Virus record (IMG/VR): IMGVR_UViG_3300022853_000017
Origin: an uncultured virus (IMG/VR IMGVR_UViG_3300022853_000017)
Taxonomy: Duplodnaviria > Heunggongvirae > Uroviricota > Caudoviricetes
Length of the DNA stretch: 64,000 nt
Direction: 5' to 3' (one strand)
A model generated the notes under the pieces. It ran no database searches and was not told the origin of the DNA. It was given only the letters and a program-made list of their open reading frames with translations. Positions 11,239-41,274 of the stretch are shown piece after piece. The translations under genes were made by a program, and so were the position numbers. Every line of letters begins with the position of its first letter. Positions within the stretch are counted from its first letter, which is position 1.

Positions 11239-11312
11239 TGGTTCCGGTAGATGGAATCGAACCACCATTAGAAGATTACAAATCTACTGTAATACCATTA
11301 TACTATACCGGA
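11239..11312 (-). tRNA. tRNA-Thr(UGU)
   Basis: 74-nt cloverleaf TCCGGTA...GTAGA TTTGTAA TCTTC...GGTTCGATTCC...TACCGGA A CCA. Confidence 0.85.
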
Positions 11313-26196: not shown

Positions 26197-26421
26197 TTAC
26201 CATCCTGGCGCACGATAGTCGCCATCCTTTTTATATACTTGAAAACCATCAAGCCCGTATGTGGGACAAACAAAAATCTTATCTGGCAATCCAGAACTAT
26301 CCTTCTCACCAGCTTCTCCACAAATGAAGAAGTGTCCCGACTTTTCTGGAAATACTTTACGGAGAATGTTCTTGAGTTTTTCATTCTCTATTTCAAGTTC
26401 TTTAATGCGATCTTCGGTCAT
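26197..26421 (-). CDS. hypothetical protein
   Basis: FFICGEAG..D..GLP..I.VCP.YG. Confidence 0.65.
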   Translation of the reverse strand: MTEDRIKELEIENEKLKNILRKVFPEKSGHFFICGEAGEKDSSGLPDKIFVCPTYGLDGFQVYKKDGDYRAPGW

Positions 26422-26867
26422 CCTCGCCTCATCTTTGCAATCTCTTCTGCCTGTTTCTTACCCCGAACTGGCACTGCATTGGATTTATGCATCTGTGCAA
26501 TACCTATAATCTCAATACCAGTATAAATCTTCTCTGGTTTCTTTGCCATAGAAGAATCATACAGAACATTATTGGTAGACCCGGCAGGATTCGAACCTGC
26601 GACATAAGCGTTATGAGCGCTCCGTTCTAACCAGACTGAACTACAGGTCTGTGATTTGGCGCACTCGACAGGACTCGAACCTGCGACCCACGGCTTAGAA
26701 GGCCGTTGCTCTAATCCAACTGAGCTACGAGTGCCTATACCCATCTTCTTGAGAAACTTGTCGTGTTGACGCTCTGCCTCTAGGACAGAGGCCGACTTCT
26801 TTTTCTGTTTGCGCTTGCGTGTATTCGTAGTCGAATAATACACAGGCAATAAATGCATACTGTTCAT
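26418..26867 (-). CDS. conserved T4-like hypothetical protein whose CDS contains two tRNA genes
   Basis: MHLLPVYY...KFLKKMG and YTG..IIGIAQMHKSNAVPV...MRRG ends; open frame through both tRNAs; early promoter 26874-26902. Confidence 0.75.
   Translation of the reverse strand: MNSMHLLPVYYSTTNTRKRKQKKKSASVLEAERQHDKFLKKMGIGTRSSVGLEQRPSKPWVAGSSPVECAKSQTCSSVWLERSAHNAYVAGSNPAGSTNNVLYDSSMAKKPEKIYTGIEIIGIAQMHKSNAVPVRGKKQAEEIAKMRRG
26573..26650 (-). tRNA. tRNA with CAU anticodon (probably Ile2; Met not excluded)
   Basis: 78-nt cloverleaf AGACCTG...GAGCG CTCATAA CGCTT...GGTTCGAATCC...CGGGTCT A CCA. Confidence 0.9.
26657..26734 (-). tRNA. tRNA-Arg(UCU)
   Basis: 78-nt cloverleaf GCACTCG...ACGGC CTTCTAA GCCGT...GGTTCGAGTCC...CGAGTGC G CCA. 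Confidence 0.95.
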
Positions 26868-26898
26868 TATATAACTATAAACTATTTTTTAGGGTTTG

Positions 26899-27135
26899 TC
26901 AAGTGTTTTTTTCAGAATCTTTAAGCGCATATGCAATTAATTCTGAAATAGGAATCAACTCTTTGTCGCCATCCTTATCCATTGATGTTGCAATAAAACC
27001 CTCTTTCTCTAGGGTTTCAAGCATAGAGCCGATGATATTCTTAATATTTGTCTTTGAGAAATAACCTCCTGCATAATATGCGGCACCAATAGCACCCATT
27101 GCAAGGAATGTGTGGAGGTATACATCCATAATCAT
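26899..27135 (-). CDS. small membrane-anchored hypothetical protein
   Basis: N-terminal hydrophobic helix; LEKEGFI...DKDGDKELIPI. Confidence 0.65.
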   Translation of the reverse strand: MIMDVYLHTFLAMGAIGAAYYAGGYFSKTNIKNIIGSMLETLEKEGFIATSMDKDGDKELIPISELIAYALKDSEKNT

Positions 27136-27226
27136 ATTTATATCTTTCCTTAGAACCAATCTACAAGTATAATATAACACATTGTAAAGGGATTGTCAAG
27201 TCTTTTTTTGATATTTTTTAAAATAA

Positions 27227-27391: not shown

Positions 27392-28042
27392 CTACTTTGT
27401 GGTGGCTATCTTAATCTTATAGGCACTTAACCCTGTTGCTCTACTAGCGGCATTGAGTGACGGATATTCTACACCTTCAAAAATGACTTTTATACTATAA
27501 CTTTCCATCATATTTTGAGTTCTGGATTGCGATCCTTTTTTACCTTTGTTCCAAGGCTCTTTACCTTTACGGGGATGACCCTTTTCTGCCCATACTGATT
27601 TTAGTTTATCTCCGTGATTCTTAGGAATGCCCAAGCCCCTACCCCTGTTTGCTTCACTTATTTTGCGTTTAGTTTCATCTGTGTGTTTCATACCATGAAA
27701 TCCATTTTTTTCGCCATACAAAAAGTTTTTGCTTGCTATGTGTGCTTGGTACGCTGGACTGTGGGGTGTGTCTCCGCCATCACCCTGTTCATGTACTATA
27801 TTAGCCCATTCGTTGGATTCTGCTATATTATATAAGTGGCTATAGTAGAGTGCGGTTTCCTTAAATAATAACTTATCGTTAGTCTCAAATAGTATTTCCG
27901 TAGTATGTTCTATACCATGTTTATCTAAATGGCGAATCCAATGCGTGCCGGAGCCCATATATGTGTATGGATTTTGTACGGTTTTACCCAAATACTTTAA
28001 TCCTGAAGAATGTGTTTTGATGTATAGATATGTATGTTTCAT
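27392..28042 (-). mobile_element. free-standing GIY-YIG homing endonuclease with NUMOD3-like repeat
   Basis: YLYIKTH..GLKYLGKT...YMGSG..W; HTDETKRKISEA; PWNKG. Confidence 0.85.
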
Positions 28043-28080
28043 ACATGTATTTAGTATTTTGTGGTTGCGACAAAAGCTTC

Positions 28081-30132
28081 TTATTTTGATTGAGCCCAGA
28101 AGATTCCATCCCAATCCTCTTCAAGTGGTTGTGTCTTCATAAACTCACAGCGTTCAATCCACATAGTATAATAGTTTTTCATTCTACCGTCGAATTCATT
28201 CATCAAATCATTACATAATCTAATAGCATGGTCAAAATGTTGATTACGATAATATTCGTGCATCTTCTCATGTTGGCTCTCTGCTATACCCCAATTGGTA
28301 TTCTCCATCATCCATCCCATTTCACTGAGAACGGTATATATTCGAATACCAACAGTCTTACCCTTCACTGCAAGCTCATCAACCTTCAAGTAGAAGAAGT
28401 CATCCTTGGTTAAGTCATATGTGGCTTCACCAACCAACAACAGACACCCATACTCTTTGCACTTGCTCTCAATACGAGCAGCGGTAGAGACTGCATCACC
28501 AAGGACATCATAACTGTGTCGCATGGTAGAACCCATCTCTCCAAGATATCCCAACCCTGTGTTGATACCCGCACCCATTCCTATAGGTGGTTTGCCTTCA
28601 GCAACGATCTTGTCATTAAACTTCACTACTGCATCTAGCATCAGTAGCCCAGTTTTAACTGCGCTCTTTGGGTGGTCTGGGTCATCTATGGGTGCGTTAT
28701 GAATGTGCATACTTGCATCACCGATATATTTGATTACCATGCCGTTTGAATCTAAAATAGGTTGTGTGATTGCATCCATATATCCATTCATGATTTCAGT
28801 AAGACCCTTGACATCATCACCAAAACTCTCGCCTAATGGTGTGAACCCACGAAGATCAGAGAAGCAAATACTAATCTCCTTCTTCATACCGTCTTTGATC
28901 AGTGATGGATTTTCTTGTAGTAACCGAACCACAGTTGGGCTGGCATATCCAGCGAACTGTTTCTTGATTTCCATTTTCTGTTTATATTCTTCCATGAACC
29001 GCAGAAACGCAGCAATGGCCCAAACTACAAACATAGTAAGGACGGGATAGGACCAATCCACCAGATAACTGTATTCCGTGAATAGGTAAGATGAACCATA
29101 GAATGAACCGACAAGGAACAATGGCAGTAATACTGCACCAAAATACCACGCCAATGTGAGAACTGTTAGTGCTAGGATTAATGCACCAACACCGCTGATT
29201 GCTAATTCTGCAAGATCAGTCCAAAATGGTCTGGTTATATTGCGACCTGTCATCATGGTAGCAAGTGATGCACCAATAAGGTCATGGGACTGTATGACCC
29301 CCACAGGGGTTGCAACAGGGCTTCCAAGACCAGAAGCAGTCATACTGAGTATAACGATTTTACCTTTGAGGTCTGGTAATTTCTCATGTAGGGGGTGAGT
29401 TTTTGTTCTCCACTGAAAATCCAACCATATGTTACCATTGGCATCTGTGTCAATCATTTTATATTTGGGGATGCGTAGTTTTTCTACACCAGCGATACCC
29501 GTCTTCATCTGGAACGATATGTCTCCTGATGCCATGCGTAGGATTTCCATACTGATAGATGGATATATTTTATCATTCACTGCAATCACCAAAGGCATAC
29601 GTCTAACTACACCATCAGCCTCTGGTGCAATAACCATCATACCAACAGCATTGGCACTCTTTGCAAGTTCTGGAATAGGACCAACCACACCGGGGTATCT
29701 ATATACCCAATTTTTCCAAGGATGGCCAACCGTTGCAACACCACGCACTACACCAGAATTACTATTGTCTGTGCTAGGTATCTGCCCTATAACAGTTGGT
29801 GTTTGTTTGAGCACGTTAGCAAAGAATGTATCCTTACCCCCACGGTCTGGGTCTGCGAATAGAATAGGAACAACGACTAATGACGCTCCTGCTTGATAGA
29901 GTTTGATAATCTCGTTACCAAGTGTTTCCCTATCCCAAGGCCACTGCCCACGTTCTCTGATTGTCTGATTGTTAATTTCTACAGTAACAACATTATCAAT
30001 TATCAGTGTTTCTTGATTGCGCTGATGTTGATCCATTGCCTTGAGGCGAACCATGTCTAGGAACCACGGGTCTGCAAAACGCAATCCACACAATACTAAA
30101 ATGACGAATAATGATATAATCCACTTTTTCAT
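28081..30132 (-). CDS. CHASE2-domain class III adenylate/guanylate cyclase
   Basis: GQWPWDR, DGVVRRMPL; 3 TM helices; FSDLRGFT, KYIGDA, GINTG, YDVLGDAVSTAARIES, VKGK. Confidence 0.93.
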   Translation of the reverse strand: MKKWIISLFVILVLCGLRFADPWFLDMVRLKAMDQHQRNQETLIIDNVVTVEINNQTIRERGQWPWDRETLGNEIIKLYQAGASLVVVPILFADPDRGGKDTFFANVLKQTPTVIGQIPSTDNSNSGVVRGVATVGHPWKNWVYRYPGVVGPIPELAKSANAVGMMVIAPEADGVVRRMPLVIAVNDKIYPSISMEILRMASGDISFQMKTGIAGVEKLRIPKYKMIDTDANGNIWLDFQWRTKTHPLHEKLPDLKGKIVILSMTASGLGSPVATPVGVIQSHDLIGASLATMMTGRNITRPFWTDLAELAISGVGALILALTVLTLAWYFGAVLLPLFLVGSFYGSSYLFTEYSYLVDWSYPVLTMFVVWAIAAFLRFMEEYKQKMEIKKQFAGYASPTVVRLLQENPSLIKDGMKKEISICFSDLRGFTPLGESFGDDVKGLTEIMNGYMDAITQPILDSNGMVIKYIGDASMHIHNAPIDDPDHPKSAVKTGLLMLDAVVKFNDKIVAEGKPPIGMGAGINTGLGYLGEMGSTMRHSYDVLGDAVSTAARIESKCKEYGCLLLVGEATYDLTKDDFFYLKVDELAVKGKTVGIRIYTVLSEMGWMMENTNWGIAESQHEKMHEYYRNQHFDHAIRLCNDLMNEFDGRMKNYYTMWIERCEFMKTQPLEEDWDGIFWAQSK

Positions 30133-38015: not shown

Positions 38016-38330
38016 CTATACTCCAAACGATGATCCACAACCACAACTACTTTTCTGTTGTGGATTGCTAATTTTGAGGAACGAACCCCCCAACTCTGTT
38101 ACATAATCTATTTCTGACCCCAAGACATACATCTCTGCCATTGGGTCAAGTACTAATACATTTTCAATTGGTTCTGACCAATTTACATCTGGAAGCTCTG
38201 ATGCCATTGCCCAAACATATTCCAAACCAGAACATCCACCACCCTTAACTCCAAGGGACACATAGTCTCCATCTGATCTAACACTATCTAGATAATCAAC
38301 TGCCGATTTTGTTAGCGCTATCCCGAACAT
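38016..38330 (-). CDS. A-type Fe-S carrier (IscA/HesB family)
   Basis: GGGCSGLEY...IDY...NP...CGCGSSF. Confidence 0.92.
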
Positions 38331-39364
38331 GCTATACACTCCTCTTGTGTCATTGTTTGTGTTTCGTAATCTTTCAATGCATCACGCACTATTTTGGTTG
38401 ACACATTCTCTGCTTTGGCTGAGGTTTCTGTACGAAGATAATACAATCCCTTACAACCCAACTTCCAAGCATTGTAGTGTACTTTATGTAGGTCTGCCTT
38501 CGATGCGCCTGCTGGAAAGAACACATTTAATGACTGACCCTGACATAGAAACTGTTGCCGATCAGCAGCCTGAGAAACGATTGCGTTTTGGTCAATTTCA
38601 ATAGCAGTCCTGAATATATCCTTTACCTCTGATGACAGAAAACTTAGGTGTTGAACAGAACCACCATTAGTGATAATCGAACTCCAAGTTGTTGCATCAT
38701 TCTTATTTATCTTCTCCAATTCCTCTTCAAGATATTTATCTTTAACCAAATGGGAACCAGCACGGGTTCTGTGCGTATATGCATTTGCCTTACTGGGCTC
38801 AATAGATGGCGACGTGCCACAGATGATTGAACTGTTTGCATTAGGTGCAATTGCCAATAGGTGAGAATTGCGCCTTCTTGTACCCTTCATATCTGGACAT
38901 TCACCACGTTCCTTTGAAAGTTGTTCTGTCTCTGCAACTGCTTCTGATTTAATATGTTCAAAGATTTGAATGTTTTTAACCACAGCAGATGGAGACTCAA
39001 GGGGGATACGATGCTTGTGCAAATAAGAATGCCATCCCATTGCACCCAAACCAAGGCTACGTTCTTGTGTAGCAGAGAAACGAGCACGACTGATTTCATC
39101 ACCCGCATTGTCAATGAAGAACTGAAGGACGTTATCTAGGAATCGAATAAGATCACGAATCATTGTAGTATCCTTCCATTCATCAAATTTCTCCAGATTG
39201 ACAGATGACAAACAACACACAGCAGTGCGATCTTCATTAGTAGGAAGGTGAATCTCATTACAGTTATGCACAACAATACCATTAGCATAAAAGTTGTGGT
39301 TGTTCTCTACAGTAATATCATATACGGGCCGGCGCTGAGTTAGTTTCGTTATTTTTAAGGCCAT
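38318..39364 (-). CDS. nrdA: IntC (34 aa) fused to RNR alpha subunit C-terminal part
   Basis: VYDITVENNHNFYANGIVVHN|CNEIHLP...AIAPNANSS...QSLN...LYYLR...ECIACSG. Confidence 0.95.
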   Translation of the reverse strand: MALKITKLTQRRPVYDITVENNHNFYANGIVVHNCNEIHLPTNEDRTAVCCLSSVNLEKFDEWKDTTMIRDLIRFLDNVLQFFIDNAGDEISRARFSATQERSLGLGAMGWHSYLHKHRIPLESPSAVVKNIQIFEHIKSEAVAETEQLSKERGECPDMKGTRRRNSHLLAIAPNANSSIICGTSPSIEPSKANAYTHRTRAGSHLVKDKYLEEELEKINKNDATTWSSIITNGGSVQHLSFLSSEVKDIFRTAIEIDQNAIVSQAADRQQFLCQGQSLNVFFPAGASKADLHKVHYNAWKLGCKGLYYLRTETSAKAENVSTKIVRDALKDYETQTMTQEECIACSG

Positions 39365-39366
39365 GA

Positions 39367-40008
39367 TTATTTTCTCCTACTTGCTTCTGCTAGTTTTTGT
39401 TTGTGTTCTTTAGTTTTTACATATTTAAAGTCATCGTCACACAACCCATATTTTTTCTTCATAGAATTTTTAAATCCCACTCTGCCACCACCCAAATCTT
39501 CAAATCTACACAGCGCATAACTTGTGGGAAAACCAAGAGTTTTACTATATATAAACCAGTGATATAATGGTAATACACCATGTTCTTTAAAATAAGAATA
39601 TGCGCCTTCAAGCAGTGTTTCGTCATCAACATTAATATATCTGGGATTATTCGTTCCTTTCATCATCCTACTATGATTTTTATAAAACTCATCTCGTTTC
39701 TCTGGGGGAACACAATATCCACCATCACCACCAAGACTTTGATTATACCCATTCACATAAGTATCAAGATTTTTAATATAGAACTTTTCCATATCAGTTG
39801 CTTTCTTTTTAGAACGACCTTCCCACAATATCTTTGATGAAAAATCATCTATACCATATAATCGTATCGCATTATATAAATGCGTCTGCTGACCTCGTTT
39901 AGCATTAATATGGTGTTTGTGCAATCTCGCTGATACACCCTTTGAACTATATCCCACATATTGTTTGCCGGATGTTTTAGATGTTAATAGATATGTTGTG
40001 TATTTCAT
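39367..40008 (-). mobile_element. GIY-YIG-type homing endonuclease between nrdA halves
   Basis: TYLLT...GKQYVG.S....RL..H...E..YI...GYN...GGDG. Confidence 0.88.
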
Positions 40009-40095
40009 ATTAATCCCCGATAGATGAGTAGATGGATTTCTTGTTATACTTATATTTATAATAAAACAAATCTATAGAAATCCATCTACTATTAT

Positions 40096-41274
40096 CTAAC
40101 CAAAGACAAGATCATCATCCTCGTTCAAATCCTCAGCCTTTACATACCCACGATTTTTTGTGAATACTCTGTGGTCGGGGGTGCATTCAATAAAGTTGCC
40201 AGTTTCTTCATCCTCAATACGAATCAAATCAGCATCATTATTCATCAACGAACCAGATAATACTCTTTGATAGGAAGTTTCACCAGTTTCCACATTATAG
40301 GACAGAACTTTAACATCAGCAGCAAAACTCTGTTTGCAAATATATTCAAGTGTAACCCCAAAACAGGGATCGCCGTCTATAATACAATCAAGTTTTGTAT
40401 CACCCACAAGACACAGGTTAGACCCGTTGATTTTTAATCCTTTATCTTTCATGGTCTGTGGTAATGCACGGTTGGCTGTATCAATGAAGTTAAGATATGG
40501 TTCACCTGTGCGATAACGTGTCTCCAACACAGTTTCCCATAATTTTCTAGCCTTCATACTGTCACGGGCATCTTGTTCATTTGGATCAACCAAATCCCAC
40601 ATCTCATCACGTTCTACTGCTCGCATAAACGCATCGCTAATATTCACTGCATGATGCAAATTAAGGTTCTTACGATTCACGTCTCCTGTGGGTATACGCA
40701 TGTTTAGGAACTCAATAATATCAGGGTGGGAGATGTCCATGTATGCAGCATATGACCCCTTACGGGTCTTCCCCTGACGATATGCGGTCATGTCAGCGTC
40801 TACTGTATGGATAAATGGCATAGGACCGGGTGCTTTATCTGACACTGCACGAACATCACTCCAATGTCCACCAACACCACCACCCTTGACTGACAACCAA
40901 CGCAACTCAGCAGAATGGTCAATCAAACCCTCAAGGGTATCAGGAACATATGTGAGGAAACAGGAGATAGGAAGAGCTCGTGTCTTCTCACCCGGCATAG
41001 GAGCATTGGATAGGACCGGGGAAGCAAACATAAACCAACCATCACTTACATAATCATAAATCTTCTGGGCAAGTTCCATGTCACCATATGAATACGCAAC
41101 CGCTGCTCGTGCATATGCCTGTTGTGGTGATATTTCATCCTTTGTCTGGTAATAATCTGTAAGTAACTTCTTAGCTTGTTCTGACAGAGATTGATCTTTT
41201 GTTCTGTCTATTTTAATTCCAACGTATTCTTCTGTGGTTTTGAGGTATACAACTTCAGCGGTTGCGGTGTTCAT
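40096..41274 (-). CDS. nrdA: RNR alpha subunit N-terminal part fused to IntN (105 aa)
   Basis: FASPVLSN, ISCFL, GGGVG, RQGKTRKGS, TGEPY, GSNL|CLVGDT...CTPDHRVFT. Confidence 0.95.
   Translation of the reverse strand: MNTATAEVVYLKTTEEYVGIKIDRTKDQSLSEQAKKLLTDYYQTKDEISPQQAYARAAVAYSYGDMELAQKIYDYVSDGWFMFASPVLSNAPMPGEKTRALPISCFLTYVPDTLEGLIDHSAELRWLSVKGGGVGGHWSDVRAVSDKAPGPMPFIHTVDADMTAYRQGKTRKGSYAAYMDISHPDIIEFLNMRIPTGDVNRKNLNLHHAVNISDAFMRAVERDEMWDLVDPNEQDARDSMKARKLWETVLETRYRTGEPYLNFIDTANRALPQTMKDKGLKINGSNLCLVGDTKLDCIIDGDPCFGVTLEYICKQSFAADVKVLSYNVETGETSYQRVLSGSLMNNDADLIRIEDEETGNFIECTPDHRVFTKNRGYVKAEDLNEDDDLVFG

Follow-up and report, generated by a model that had tools for sequence, protein, structure and literature searches.

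Can the same stretch of DNA serve, on one strand, both as complete tRNA genes and as codons in the middle of a protein? This question is raised by a locus in the 64,000-nucleotide stretch of DNA analyzed here (the window; IMG/VR record IMGVR_UViG_3300022853_000017), which derives from a marine, T4-like phage. An initial annotation described two complete tRNAs of 78 nt each, ending in CCA, separated by 6 nt and lying on the same strand as a 149-codon ORF that crosses both without encountering a stop and whose own stop codon overlaps the start of the next gene. All of these features were recovered; ARAGORN identified both tRNAs, and the overlap with the following ORF takes the form ATGA (Table 1). 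Of the three possible frames through the tRNA block, two are closed by stops; the ORF uses the one that is open. The reading that we favor, to which we assign a probability of roughly three in four, is that the linker of an early gene of the PHROG 27048 family has been taken over by functional, in-frame tRNAs, and that translational read-through would compete with processing by RNase P.

Table 1. Positions of the nested features and their neighbors in the window
Feature	Position	Strand	Remarks
149-codon ORF	26418..26867	-	PHROG 27048 member; both tRNA genes inside, in frame
N flank	26735..26867	-	Codons 1-44 and first base of codon 45; MNSMHLLPVYYSTTNTRKRKQKKKSASVLEAERQHDKFLKKMGI; doubles as 5' leader of the putative tRNA precursor
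tRNA-Arg(UCU), 78 nt, CCA encoded	26657..26734	-	From second base of codon 45; read as ..TRSSVGLEQRPSKPWVAGSSPVECA; ARAGORN, Rfam
Spacer between the two tRNAs, 6 nt, frame-keeping	26651..26656	-	
tRNA with anticodon CAU, 78 nt, CCA encoded	26573..26650	-	ARAGORN call Met(cat)
C flank including stop codon	26418..26572	-	NNVLYDSSMAKKPEKIYTGIEIIGIAQMHKSNAVPVRGKKQAEEIAKMRRG, then stop
M107, possible internal start within C flank	26547-26549	-	
Next ORF, 74 aa	26197..26421	-	ATG overlaps stop of tRNA-bearing ORF as ATGA
Sigma-70-like promoter TTGACA-17-TATAGT	26874..26902	-	11/12 consensus matches; -10 box ends 7 nt before first ATG

The position of the promoter suggests a leaderless or very short-leader transcript. 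In relatives, 38 unique contexts upstream of M1 include 16 that are promoter-like, 11 that are SD-like and 7 with a TAATG stop/start overlap, and the same promoter at the same distance from the ATG was read by eye from the sequences in 16 of the 38. A homing-endonuclease-like gene is located 0.5 kb upstream of the tRNA-bearing ORF. No Pfam family matched the ORF, any of its neighbors or the tRNA-free homologs, and a family search with the downstream 74-aa ORF found none.

Integrity and identity of the embedded tRNAs

When scored with the Rfam model RF00005, which has a gathering score of 29, tRNA-Arg(UCU) and tRNA-CAU reach 69.9 and 68.3 bits, respectively, and in both of them the anticodon loop and the CCA end are intact. 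For tRNA-Arg, compared across 26 unique relatives, pairing is retained in 545 of 546 stem cells, with compensatory changes at 6 pairs. For tRNA-CAU, with four unique relatives, the corresponding values are 88 of 88 cells and 6 compensatory pairs. The tRNAs embedded in the ORFs of relatives score 61-78 bits for most architectures. Judged by these sequence comparisons, the embedded tRNAs are intact and under structural selection. This bears directly on the proposal that the tRNA-like stretches are dead relics, which now do nothing but encode a linker. Decayed copies, consistent with this proposal, do exist in some relatives (none detectable in locus L016, 34.8 bits in L062 and 32.2 bits in L285), but the high scores, compensated stems and intact anticodon loops and CCA ends of the window tRNAs render it extremely improbable for the locus studied here.

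The tRNA-CAU is not initiator-like and may presumably be a tRNA-Ile2 for AUA. Among relatives the identity of the embedded tRNAs varies, with Arg, Met/CAU, Pro, Ala, Thr, Asp and Cys represented and at least 8 types assigned by ARAGORN. This variability argues against a specific partnership between the host protein and the tRNAs within its gene.

The two flanks as the ends of one protein

According to the initial annotation the sequences on either side of the tRNAs are the termini of a single protein family, with the tRNAs in its linker, rather than separate genes. Residues 3-148 of the window ORF match positions 2-127 of the 127-position PHROG 27048 profile (E 6e-13). The C-terminal 43 aa match this profile by themselves (E 1.7e-12), the N flank alone has no PHROG match at E <= 0.01, and BLASTP with the window ORF aligns the C part only. 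Profile-profile comparison with hhalign places the N flank at the N-terminus of the tRNA-free family with a probability of 95.1% (E 3e-8). The tRNA-free homologs are single ORFs, which match PHROG 27048 from end to end with E values from 1e-16 to 7e-68. They comprise gp114 of Delftia phage PhiW-14, ASD50532 of Acidovorax phage ACP17, an unannotated ORF of Synechococcus phage BUCT-ZZ01 and 25 metagenomic proteins. With the window ORF these proteins share an N-terminal MxMHLxxPxLxTT followed by a basic run, and a C-terminal YTGxxIxGIxxMHKSNAVP...MRR; the three proteins from named phages are also of the same size class. As a whole, the motifs, the hhalign result and the end-to-end profile matches confirm that the flanks are two ends of one protein family, and we found no indication that they are separate genes.

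What differs is the middle. In other myoviruses, tRNA-free members are single proteins 112-144 aa long that have an unrelated linker, and the tRNA-free subfamily includes 83 loci with no tRNA inside 1.2 kb. The linker of these PHROG 27048 proteins is ordinary protein of 50-70 residues, whereas that of the window ORF is made of tRNA DNA. Confidence in the AlphaFold models is low (mean pLDDT 63.9 and 55.7), with values of 36-46 for the tRNA-encoded residues 50-104 and of 76-80 for the N helix, and ESM Atlas yielded no usable lead on the protein. The family had also been described as T4-like. This is roughly right, since the members in culture are large myoviruses, one of them a Kyanoviridae phage; in T4 itself no match was found.

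Substitution patterns reveal a coding signature in both flanks. The ratio pN/pS is 0.27 for the N flank when calculated in frame, versus 1.25 and 1.46 in the other two frames, and the entropy at its three codon positions is 0.52, 0.33 and 1.13. For the C flank the in-frame ratio is 0.17, versus 1.22 and 1.88 off-frame. By these comparisons, purifying selection acts on both flanks, and in a frame that they share. They also weigh on the notion that the N flank is conserved not as protein but as an RNA leader that pairs with, or locks, the tRNA. The N flank does contain a 6-bp hairpin (26776-26792), as might suit a structured leader. On the other hand, the predicted leader-tRNA duplex of -13.9 kcal/mol is equalled by 275 of 500 shuffled leaders, the leader and tRNA fold together with a z of only -1.45, and one and the same N flank is found ahead of tRNAs for Arg, Ala, Thr, Pro and Met as well as ahead of tRNA-free linkers. 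Since variation at third codon positions and the low pN/pS point to protein coding, we give this notion almost no credence.

Persistence of the frame through changes in tRNA content

An open frame through two tRNAs could arise by accident. Free-standing phage tRNAs are free of stops in 27 of 93 phases (n = 31 tRNAs), and for two such tRNAs followed by a C flank in the correct frame the estimate is 0.29 x 0.29 x 1/3, or about 0.03. The window alone is therefore compatible with chance, and it is the comparative data that decide. Three samples of loci were used, consisting of the best 80 of 184, 241 and 150 matches; they come from uncultured viral contigs and are in part close relatives. The loci for frame analysis were fetched by flank and not chosen through ORF calling. 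The conclusions rely on fetched loci; a broader set of 848 matches may include unrelated ORFs lying over tRNA genes.

Among the best 80 loci fetched with the C flank, 73 possess an N flank, and in 72 of these the two flanks lie in the same open frame. In none of the best 80 loci fetched with the N flank is the frame broken, by a stop or a shift, up to the end of the tRNA block. The pooled best-80 samples contain 84 unique ORFs, 81 of them with tRNAs, and 80 of the 81 are uninterrupted; the sole break is the loss of 1 nt in an A5 run. A sister subfamily with an AYNKG-type C domain has an open frame in 40 of 40 cases (best-80 sample). Disruption of the frame, which the initial annotation considered would count against dual coding if it were common, thus affects 1 of 81 unique ORFs and none of the 40 in the sister subfamily. 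Homologs with 0, 1 or 2 tRNAs had been anticipated, and forms with 0, 1, 2 and 3 were all found. Across the best-80 samples, more than 100 wild relatives have an unbroken frame across one to three different tRNAs.

The manner in which the frame is maintained is informative. In the phase that is used, stops are absent from 45 of 45 unique embedded tRNA sequences, whereas the other phases mostly contain 1-3. In free-standing Arg(UCU) tRNAs this phase contains a TAG or TAA; the embedded tRNA escapes it by means of a D-loop that is longer by one base. Embedded tRNAs are 75-79 nt long with compensating spacers, so that spacers of 4, 5 and 6 nt offset tRNA lengths of 76-78 nt. The window type may be written N133-Arg78-6-Met78-47, in which numbers are nucleotides, and relatives have Arg78-5-Pro77 followed by 40 or 43, Ala76-73, Ala76-4-Pro77-40 and Thr76-5-Pro77-40. 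The totals of these architectures are all multiples of 3, whereas tRNA blocks of 76, 77, 157 and 160 nt are not. The decayed remnants in L016 and L047 are also in frame. The frame is kept across at least 14 tRNA combinations, and on a tree of the flanks the tRNA content changes at least 18 times, a count that recombination would inflate and that derives from 264 columns with 15 of 50 inner branches well supported. These alignments show that, however often the tRNA content has changed, the frame has been kept and has remained free of stops.

The same measurements address a splicing-like scheme, in which the tRNAs are excised, the flanking RNA is re-joined by a phage RNA ligase and the flanks alone are translated. 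Genes for RNA ligase and polynucleotide kinase are common among T4-like phages, and the block that would be excised from the window transcript, 162 nt, is a multiple of 3. In relatives, however, the blocks measure 76, 77, 79, 157 and 160 nt, and cutting them out exactly would put the C flank out of frame with the N flank; the two agree only when the bases of the tRNAs are counted. Moreover, ligation would leave the absence of stops from the tRNAs without a reason, and we regard the scheme as hardly credible.

A different proposal is that no protein is made from the full length of the ORF. A 43-aa C peptide, initiated at M107, and perhaps an N peptide would be made from processed RNA, and the open frame would be due to descent and chance. 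The chance estimate of about 0.03 for the window alone leaves some room for this, as does the presence of an ATG at M107 in 48 of 53 unique relatives. A search for shorter proteins returned 38 matches of 80 aa or less, among which JGI pipelines annotate proteins of 43 aa (12 matches) and 48 aa (5 matches); these come from annotations without DNA and are therefore no proof of split genes. In the remaining 5 of 53 relatives M107 is missing, so that the C domain can be reached there only from upstream, and Y103, which precedes M107, is invariant in spite of synonymous variation. An N peptide made in this way would be without a stop codon, and the proposal must also contend with the tRNA-free homologs, which are single proteins, and with an open frame that survives so many tRNA combinations, compensating spacers and in-frame remnants. 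We therefore consider it very unlikely as a full account. A separate C peptide made alongside the full-length protein is nevertheless possible, because M107 is nearly always present and because of the 43- and 48-aa annotation calls.

Finally, the frame might be open simply to keep ribosomes moving, avoiding premature termination and polarity and delivering them to the downstream start, and the joining of N and C parts would be a by-product. In 48 of 84 unique relatives (best-80 samples) the last four bases of the ORF form an overlap, ATGA in 38 and GTGA in 10, and such coupling has been proposed for selB-selC (Mukai 2021, PMC8124441). That the downstream genes differ among relatives also speaks in favor of this explanation. 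The other 36 of the 84 have no overlap, and each flank is under purifying selection and corresponds to one end of a single protein in tRNA-free relatives, which makes this explanation unlikely. It should be added that it, too, requires translation through the tRNAs and differs from the favored reading only in the reason for the frame.

Proposed fates of the transcript and known precedents

Taken together, these comparisons indicate that the same DNA very probably serves as tRNA gene and as protein linker. Translation through the tRNAs, its competition with processing and the start of transcription are inferred from sequence. In the favored reading, tRNA genes would occupy the dispensable central linker of a small, largely disordered PHROG 27048 protein, and transcription would initiate, at a predicted position of about 26867, from the sigma-70-type promoter shortly before the ATG. 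Each transcript could then meet one of two fates. Ribosomes may read from the N flank through the tRNA part, as a disordered linker rich in Ser, Gly and Pro, into the conserved C flank, and would then be coupled into the next gene by the ATGA overlap. Alternatively, the tRNA parts may fold and be excised by host RNase P, with expected cuts at 26734 and 26650, and by 3' processing, yielding tRNA-Arg(UCU) and tRNA(CAU) at the cost of the full-length message; the leftovers would be a 5' piece lacking a stop and a 3' piece still able to start at M107. Processing by RNase P is generally fast, which may limit the yield of full-length protein.

RNA sequence data were also inspected. Fifteen RNA runs, all consisting of assembled contigs, hold only 5-11% of the sampled words. 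In four runs from three studies, contigs of relatives bridge the junctions between the N flank and tRNA-Arg and between tRNA-CAU and the C flank, although DNA carry-over is possible and the contigs give no information on ends or strand; they are therefore not counted as evidence of expression. Depth peaks over the tRNAs in RNA contigs, with the tRNAs of other organisms mixed in. Joints between N and C sides were encountered in which 10-14 other letters separate the two, and these look like one-tRNA variants. An attenuation mechanism, in which rare AGA or AUA codons upstream would sense the encoded tRNAs, is not supported, since with few exceptions the N flank encodes Arg by CGC or CGT.

How does this arrangement compare with known systems? 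Mixed tRNA-mRNA transcripts are familiar from the tufB and tyrT-tpr operons of E. coli and from the T4 tRNA cluster, and dual-function RNAs are exemplified by SgrS/SgrT. In these cases stable RNA and protein derive from one RNA, the parts of which are separated by RNase P and RNase E. In tufB, tyrT-tpr and the T4 cluster the tRNA and coding parts lie side by side, and SgrS/SgrT involves a small regulator, whereas in the phage the same nucleotides are both tRNA and codons. Large overlaps of tRNA and protein genes have reportedly been described in compact animal mitochondrial genomes by Doublet et al. in 2015; there too nucleotides are shared, but at the ends of genes in highly reduced genomes, while in the phage the ORF has complete canonical tRNAs at its center. 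Our literature searches found no paper on in-frame nested tRNA genes within a phage gene.

The closest precedent is in Alphaproteobacteria, where selC, encoding tRNA-Sec, is nested within the selB ORF (Mukai 2021, Int J Mol Sci 22:4605, PMC8124441). Processing is proposed there to yield a stop-less mRNA and hence to repress the protein, a model that is itself a bioinformatic inference. The two cases share a whole sense-strand tRNA in an uninterrupted ORF that is kept among relatives (80 of 81 and 40 of 40 here, in best-80 samples), a stop that overlaps the next start, and tRNA remnants that stay in frame in some lineages; the model proposed is the same and in the phage is likewise derived from sequence. 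They differ in that selC is a single tRNA in a C-terminal extension that follows the functional domains, whereas one to three phage tRNAs lie between two conserved protein parts, so that the C domain would be joined to the N part only by reading through. Further, selB is a cellular gene whose product binds the nested tRNA, while no partnership with the nested tRNAs is known for the phage protein, and phage tRNA content turns over like cassettes, unlike selC in selB.

This turnover leads us to a more extended proposal, which we advance tentatively and regard as doubtful. The linker may be a landing pad for tRNA cassettes that are gained, lost and swapped, possibly with the aid of the homing-endonuclease-like gene, while the frame is held strictly open. 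The transcript would then be a translation-gated tRNA precursor, in which ribosome traffic chooses between protein and tRNA for each molecule. If this were true, it would constitute a built-in link between the translation capacity of the host and the phage's own supply of tRNA.

If the favored reading is correct, this locus represents a clear and widespread case in which complete, functional tRNA genes double as codons on one strand, and do so in a protein's interior instead of at its end. Software that masks tRNAs before calling genes will fragment such genes, with which the public 43-aa calls are consistent. The locus would offer a simple, testable system for studying how ribosomes and RNase P compete for a single RNA. 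The strict frame rule across tRNA swaps would provide an unusually clean evolutionary signal of translation, usable in finding similar cases. For compact phage genomes, the arrangement would be a way to gain tRNA genes without new promoters or intergenic space.

Nested tRNA genes within an open reading frame

The window, with a GC content of 39.7%, derives from a T4-like myovirus and represents its replication and early region, with genes for a family-B DNA polymerase, a gp32-like SSB, primase, a split ribonucleotide reductase and the baseplate. ARAGORN finds three tRNA genes in its whole length, two of which lie inside one ORF; both are 78 nt long and CCA-ended, are separated by 6 nt, and may be compared with the Rfam tRNA model's gathering score of 29 bits (table). 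The first base of each occupies codon position 2, and of the three frames in which the tRNA block can be read, only that used by the ORF is free of stops. The ORF's stop is shared with the ATG of the following ORF as ATGA. The initial annotation had described such a pair, nested in frame in a stop-free ORF of 149 codons that overlaps the next gene's start, and every detail was confirmed by ARAGORN, Rfam and the sequence. The free-standing tRNA-Thr(UGU), with stops in all three phases, is an internal contrast to the nested pair. Among free-standing tRNAs of five cultured phages (n=31), 27 of 93 phases were stop-free and 10 tRNAs had no open phase, so that two open tRNAs with a C flank in frame behind them (C flank, the coding part 3' of the tRNA block; N flank, that 5' of it) would arise by chance with a probability of about 0.29 x 0.29 x 1/3 = 0.03. 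The window by itself is not decisive against chance.

Coordinates of features in the window and, where prefixed with L, in loci of relatives fetched from viral contigs
Feature	Coordinates	Strand	Remarks
tRNA-Met(cat)	26573-26650	minus	ARAGORN; Rfam tRNA model 68.3 bits
tRNA-Arg(tct)	26657-26734	minus	ARAGORN; Rfam tRNA model 69.9 bits
tRNA-bearing ORF	26418..26867	minus	149 codons, covers both tRNAs
Following ORF	26197..26421
tRNA-Thr(UGU)	11239-11312	minus	free-standing
GC-rich hairpin, 6 bp	26776-26792		GCCTCT...AGAGGC, within N-flank coding sequence; flagged terminator-like on plus strand
Small preceding ORF	26899-27180
Sigma-70-like promoter	27171-27199	minus	near-consensus TTGACA-17-TATATT, TG extension
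Homing-endonuclease-like ORF	27392-28114	minus	phrog_314; NUMOD3 motif
CHASE2/cyclase ORF	28081-30132	minus	683 aa; CHASE2 sensor and adenylate/guanylate cyclase catalytic domains (Pfam E 1.6e-36, 1.5e-15); phrog_35576 over nearly full length
Ribonucleotide reductase large subunit	38318-41274	minus	split into ORFs 40096-41274 and 38318-39364
GIY-YIG endonuclease ORF	39367-40008		between the two large-subunit ORFs
ORF open through tRNA-Arg into unrelated sequence	L202:1201-1560		C flank replaced
Long tRNA	L050:98-190		Rfam 61.5 bits; ARAGORN Ile(tat)
Weak tRNA copy	L062:1411-1489		34.8 bits
Weak tRNA copy	L285:106-176		32.2 bits

Several neighbors deserve mention. The domains of the 683-aa ORF mark it as a membrane-sensor cyclase, here encoded by a T4-like phage. 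The homing-endonuclease-like ORF is situated upstream of the tRNA-bearing gene, at a distance of about 0.5 kb, and might aid movement of the tRNA cassettes; segB in the tRNA cluster of T4 provides a parallel.

Both nested tRNAs have the marks of selection for structure. In the Arg stems, 545 of 546 cells are paired across 26 unique sequences, and 9 of the 21 pairs vary, six of the nine by compensatory double changes; the Met stems are paired in 88 of 88 cells, with six compensatory pairs. By this covariation the tRNAs are evidently real. Since the stems stay paired while the frame is kept, tRNA structure and reading frame both constrain the same nucleotides.

One protein family behind both flanks

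The tRNA-bearing ORF matches PHROG 27048, a phage protein family with no assigned function, from end to end (E 6e-13), as do all the tRNA-free proteins below. A match is also obtained with the last 43 residues by themselves (E 1.7e-12), and none with the first 44. Against cultured phages, tblastn matched the C part only, in Delftia phage PhiW-14, Acidovorax phage ACP17, Synechococcus phage BUCT-ZZ01 and phage C48C1. Inspection of three of these loci (PhiW-14, ACP17 and BUCT-ZZ01) placed the match at the C-terminal end of a single tRNA-free ORF, 113-131 aa long (about 115 aa in BUCT-ZZ01). The BUCT-ZZ01 ORF as query retrieved 25 proteins of 76-144 aa, whose aligned N-terminus, M(T/S)MHLxxPxLxTTGKKKGK.., is closely like the window's MNSMHLLPVYYSTTNTRKRK... 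and whose C-terminus, YTGTxxxGIxTMHKSNAVP...MRR, resembles the C flank. BLASTP between tRNA-bearing and tRNA-free proteins aligned the C parts alone, and a profile of 16 N flanks aligned with the tRNA-free family at its N-terminus (95.1% probability, E 3e-8). The tRNA-free subfamily is abundant: stretches of viral contigs that match it number at least 600, and the 83 loci fetched have no tRNA within 1.2 kb. The single-ORF tRNA-free homologs, the profile alignment and PHROG 27048 thus bear out the proposal that the flanks are ends of one family whose linker varies, and on these comparisons the N and C flanks are evidently two ends of one protein.

Preservation of frame and probable translation through the tRNAs

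Called ORFs in the protein database measure 118-125, 144-149 or 170-175 aa. Because only called ORFs are listed there, these lengths cannot prove that the frame is kept, and DNA was therefore fetched by one flank only. Among the best 80 of 184 C-flank matches, 73 loci include the N flank, which in 72 of them shares the frame of the C flank within one open frame; the other 7 loci end at contig ends. The sole exception, L003, differs from the window only by the loss of one base in an A5 run. Among the best 80 of 241 matches to the N-flank profile, we found no stop or frameshift upstream of the end of the tRNA block: 68 are open through to an MHKSN-type C flank, 9 into a variant C domain (..IGQAYNKGG.. 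or ..APAYNKGPYQVIS..), and one, L202, through tRNA-Arg into unrelated sequence, the remaining 2 being artefacts of the start coordinate. As some contigs had been fetched twice, the two samples were pooled and de-duplicated, giving 84 unique ORFs, 81 with tRNAs, of which 80 are uninterrupted. The best 80 of 150 matches to the variant C domain reduced to 55 unique ORFs, 15 of them tRNA-free; in all of the other 40 the tRNAs are in frame and inside the open frame. Frame preservation across relatives, a point raised by the initial annotation, was thus found in both collections. A sister subfamily (L189, L191, L192, L210, L214, L226, L240-L243, L251-L330) combines the same N flank with a variant C domain, ..APAYNKGPYQVISK..IGR or ..IGQAYNKGGLQVLS..GKRR, and its linkers hold in-frame tRNAs (Ala, Pro, Arg, Asp, Cys) or none.

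The contents of the linker are diverse. As labeled by ARAGORN, the pooled sample contains Arg, Arg+Met, Arg+Pro, Arg+Ala, Ala, Ala+Pro, Pro, Pro+Thr, Thr, Thr+Pro and Met; loci cut by contig ends hold Arg+Met+Pro or Arg, a long (93-96 nt) tRNA and Pro, and the variant subfamily adds Asp and Cys. Infernal scores are 61-78 bits for most contents, 52.5 for Cys and 32-35 for two copies (L062, L285) that are still in frame and probably decaying; that of L062 looks like an Arg-type sequence with an anticodon that is now UGU. The long tRNA lies inside the open frame as the second of three arrayed tRNAs (L050) and may have a long arm or an intron. A quick maximum-likelihood tree built from the flanks (56 rows, 264 columns) has modest support; at least 18 changes of tRNA content are required on it, a count that recombination could inflate, and with shuffled labels the mean is 27 and the lowest value 23. 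The loci clearly point to many independent length changes, with the frame preserved in all.

How this is achieved bears on the question of whether the tRNAs are translated. Embedded tRNAs measure 75-79 nt and the spacers compensate (tRNA, spacer, tRNA in nt: Arg 78, 6, Met 78; Arg 78, 5, Pro 77; Ala 76, 4, Pro 77; Thr 76, 5, Pro 77), with 3' spacers of 40, 43, 47, 50, 59 or 73 nt bringing each total to a multiple of three. Because a block of 76, 77, 157 or 160 nt is not divisible by three, the flanks share a frame only when the tRNA bases are counted, which excludes excision of the tRNAs and re-joining of the pieces. Decayed remnants (L016, L047) are in frame too. No embedded tRNA has a stop in the phase in use, and the other phases mostly have 1-3. 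The Arg(UCU) tRNAs that stand alone in other phages carry an in-phase TAG or TAA, which the embedded Arg avoids by a D-loop one base longer.

A coding signature was sought in 53 unique sequences. Entropy by codon position is 0.52, 0.33 and 1.13 in the N flank and 0.30, 0.19 and 0.95 in the C flank; pN/pS is 0.27 and 0.17 in frame, compared with 1.25 and 1.46 (N) and 1.22 and 1.88 (C) off frame. The N flank itself contains no stop. M107, a possible internal start in the C flank, is ATG in 48 of the 53 and missing in 5, and Tyr103, which precedes it, is retained throughout with synonymous variation of its codon. In relatives, both flank/tRNA junctions are spanned by contigs of four marine metatranscriptome runs from three studies; these were given no weight as DNA carry-over is possible. 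Taken together, the sequences support a dual-coding interpretation of the nested tRNAs, and we put the probability that ribosomes read through them at roughly three in four. The resulting linker (residues 50-104) is predicted to be disordered, with pLDDT of 36-46, compared with up to 76-80 in the N-flank helix and 53-70 in the C flank.

A transcript with two possible fates

Start contexts at the first ATG were read by eye in 38 unique relatives. A promoter with its -10 box ending 6-7 nt upstream of the ATG occurs in 16, and the window has the same arrangement; the others have an SD-like GGAG box (11), a TAATG overlap with an upstream ORF (7), an abutting stop (1) or another context (3). A second sigma-70-like promoter stands before the small preceding ORF, and promoters are therefore dense in the early region. 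Two ideas, a sensor of rare codons upstream and pairing of the leader with tRNA, did not hold up. That the locus is a regulatory switch or a dedicated landing pad for tRNAs seems unlikely.

The literature searched gave no description of in-frame nested tRNA genes in phages. The closest published case is selC nested in the selB ORF of Alphaproteobacteria (Mukai 2021, PMC8124441), which that report presents as the first nested tRNA gene in a bacterial ORF; there too the stop overlaps the next start and in-frame tRNA remnants occur. The present case differs in being viral, in placing up to three tRNAs between two conserved protein parts rather than in a C-terminal tail, in its cassette-like turnover of at least eight ARAGORN-assigned tRNA types, and in giving no sign of a protein-tRNA partnership. 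The same paper proposes a model of processing versus translation, and the most likely reading here is likewise that one early transcript would have two competing fates. Ribosomes would translate it from the N flank through the tRNA-encoded linker to the C flank, with coupling into the next gene; or it would fold and be cut by RNase P and processed at the 3' side to release the tRNAs, leaving a 5' fragment that lacks a stop and a 3' fragment on which translation could still start at M107.
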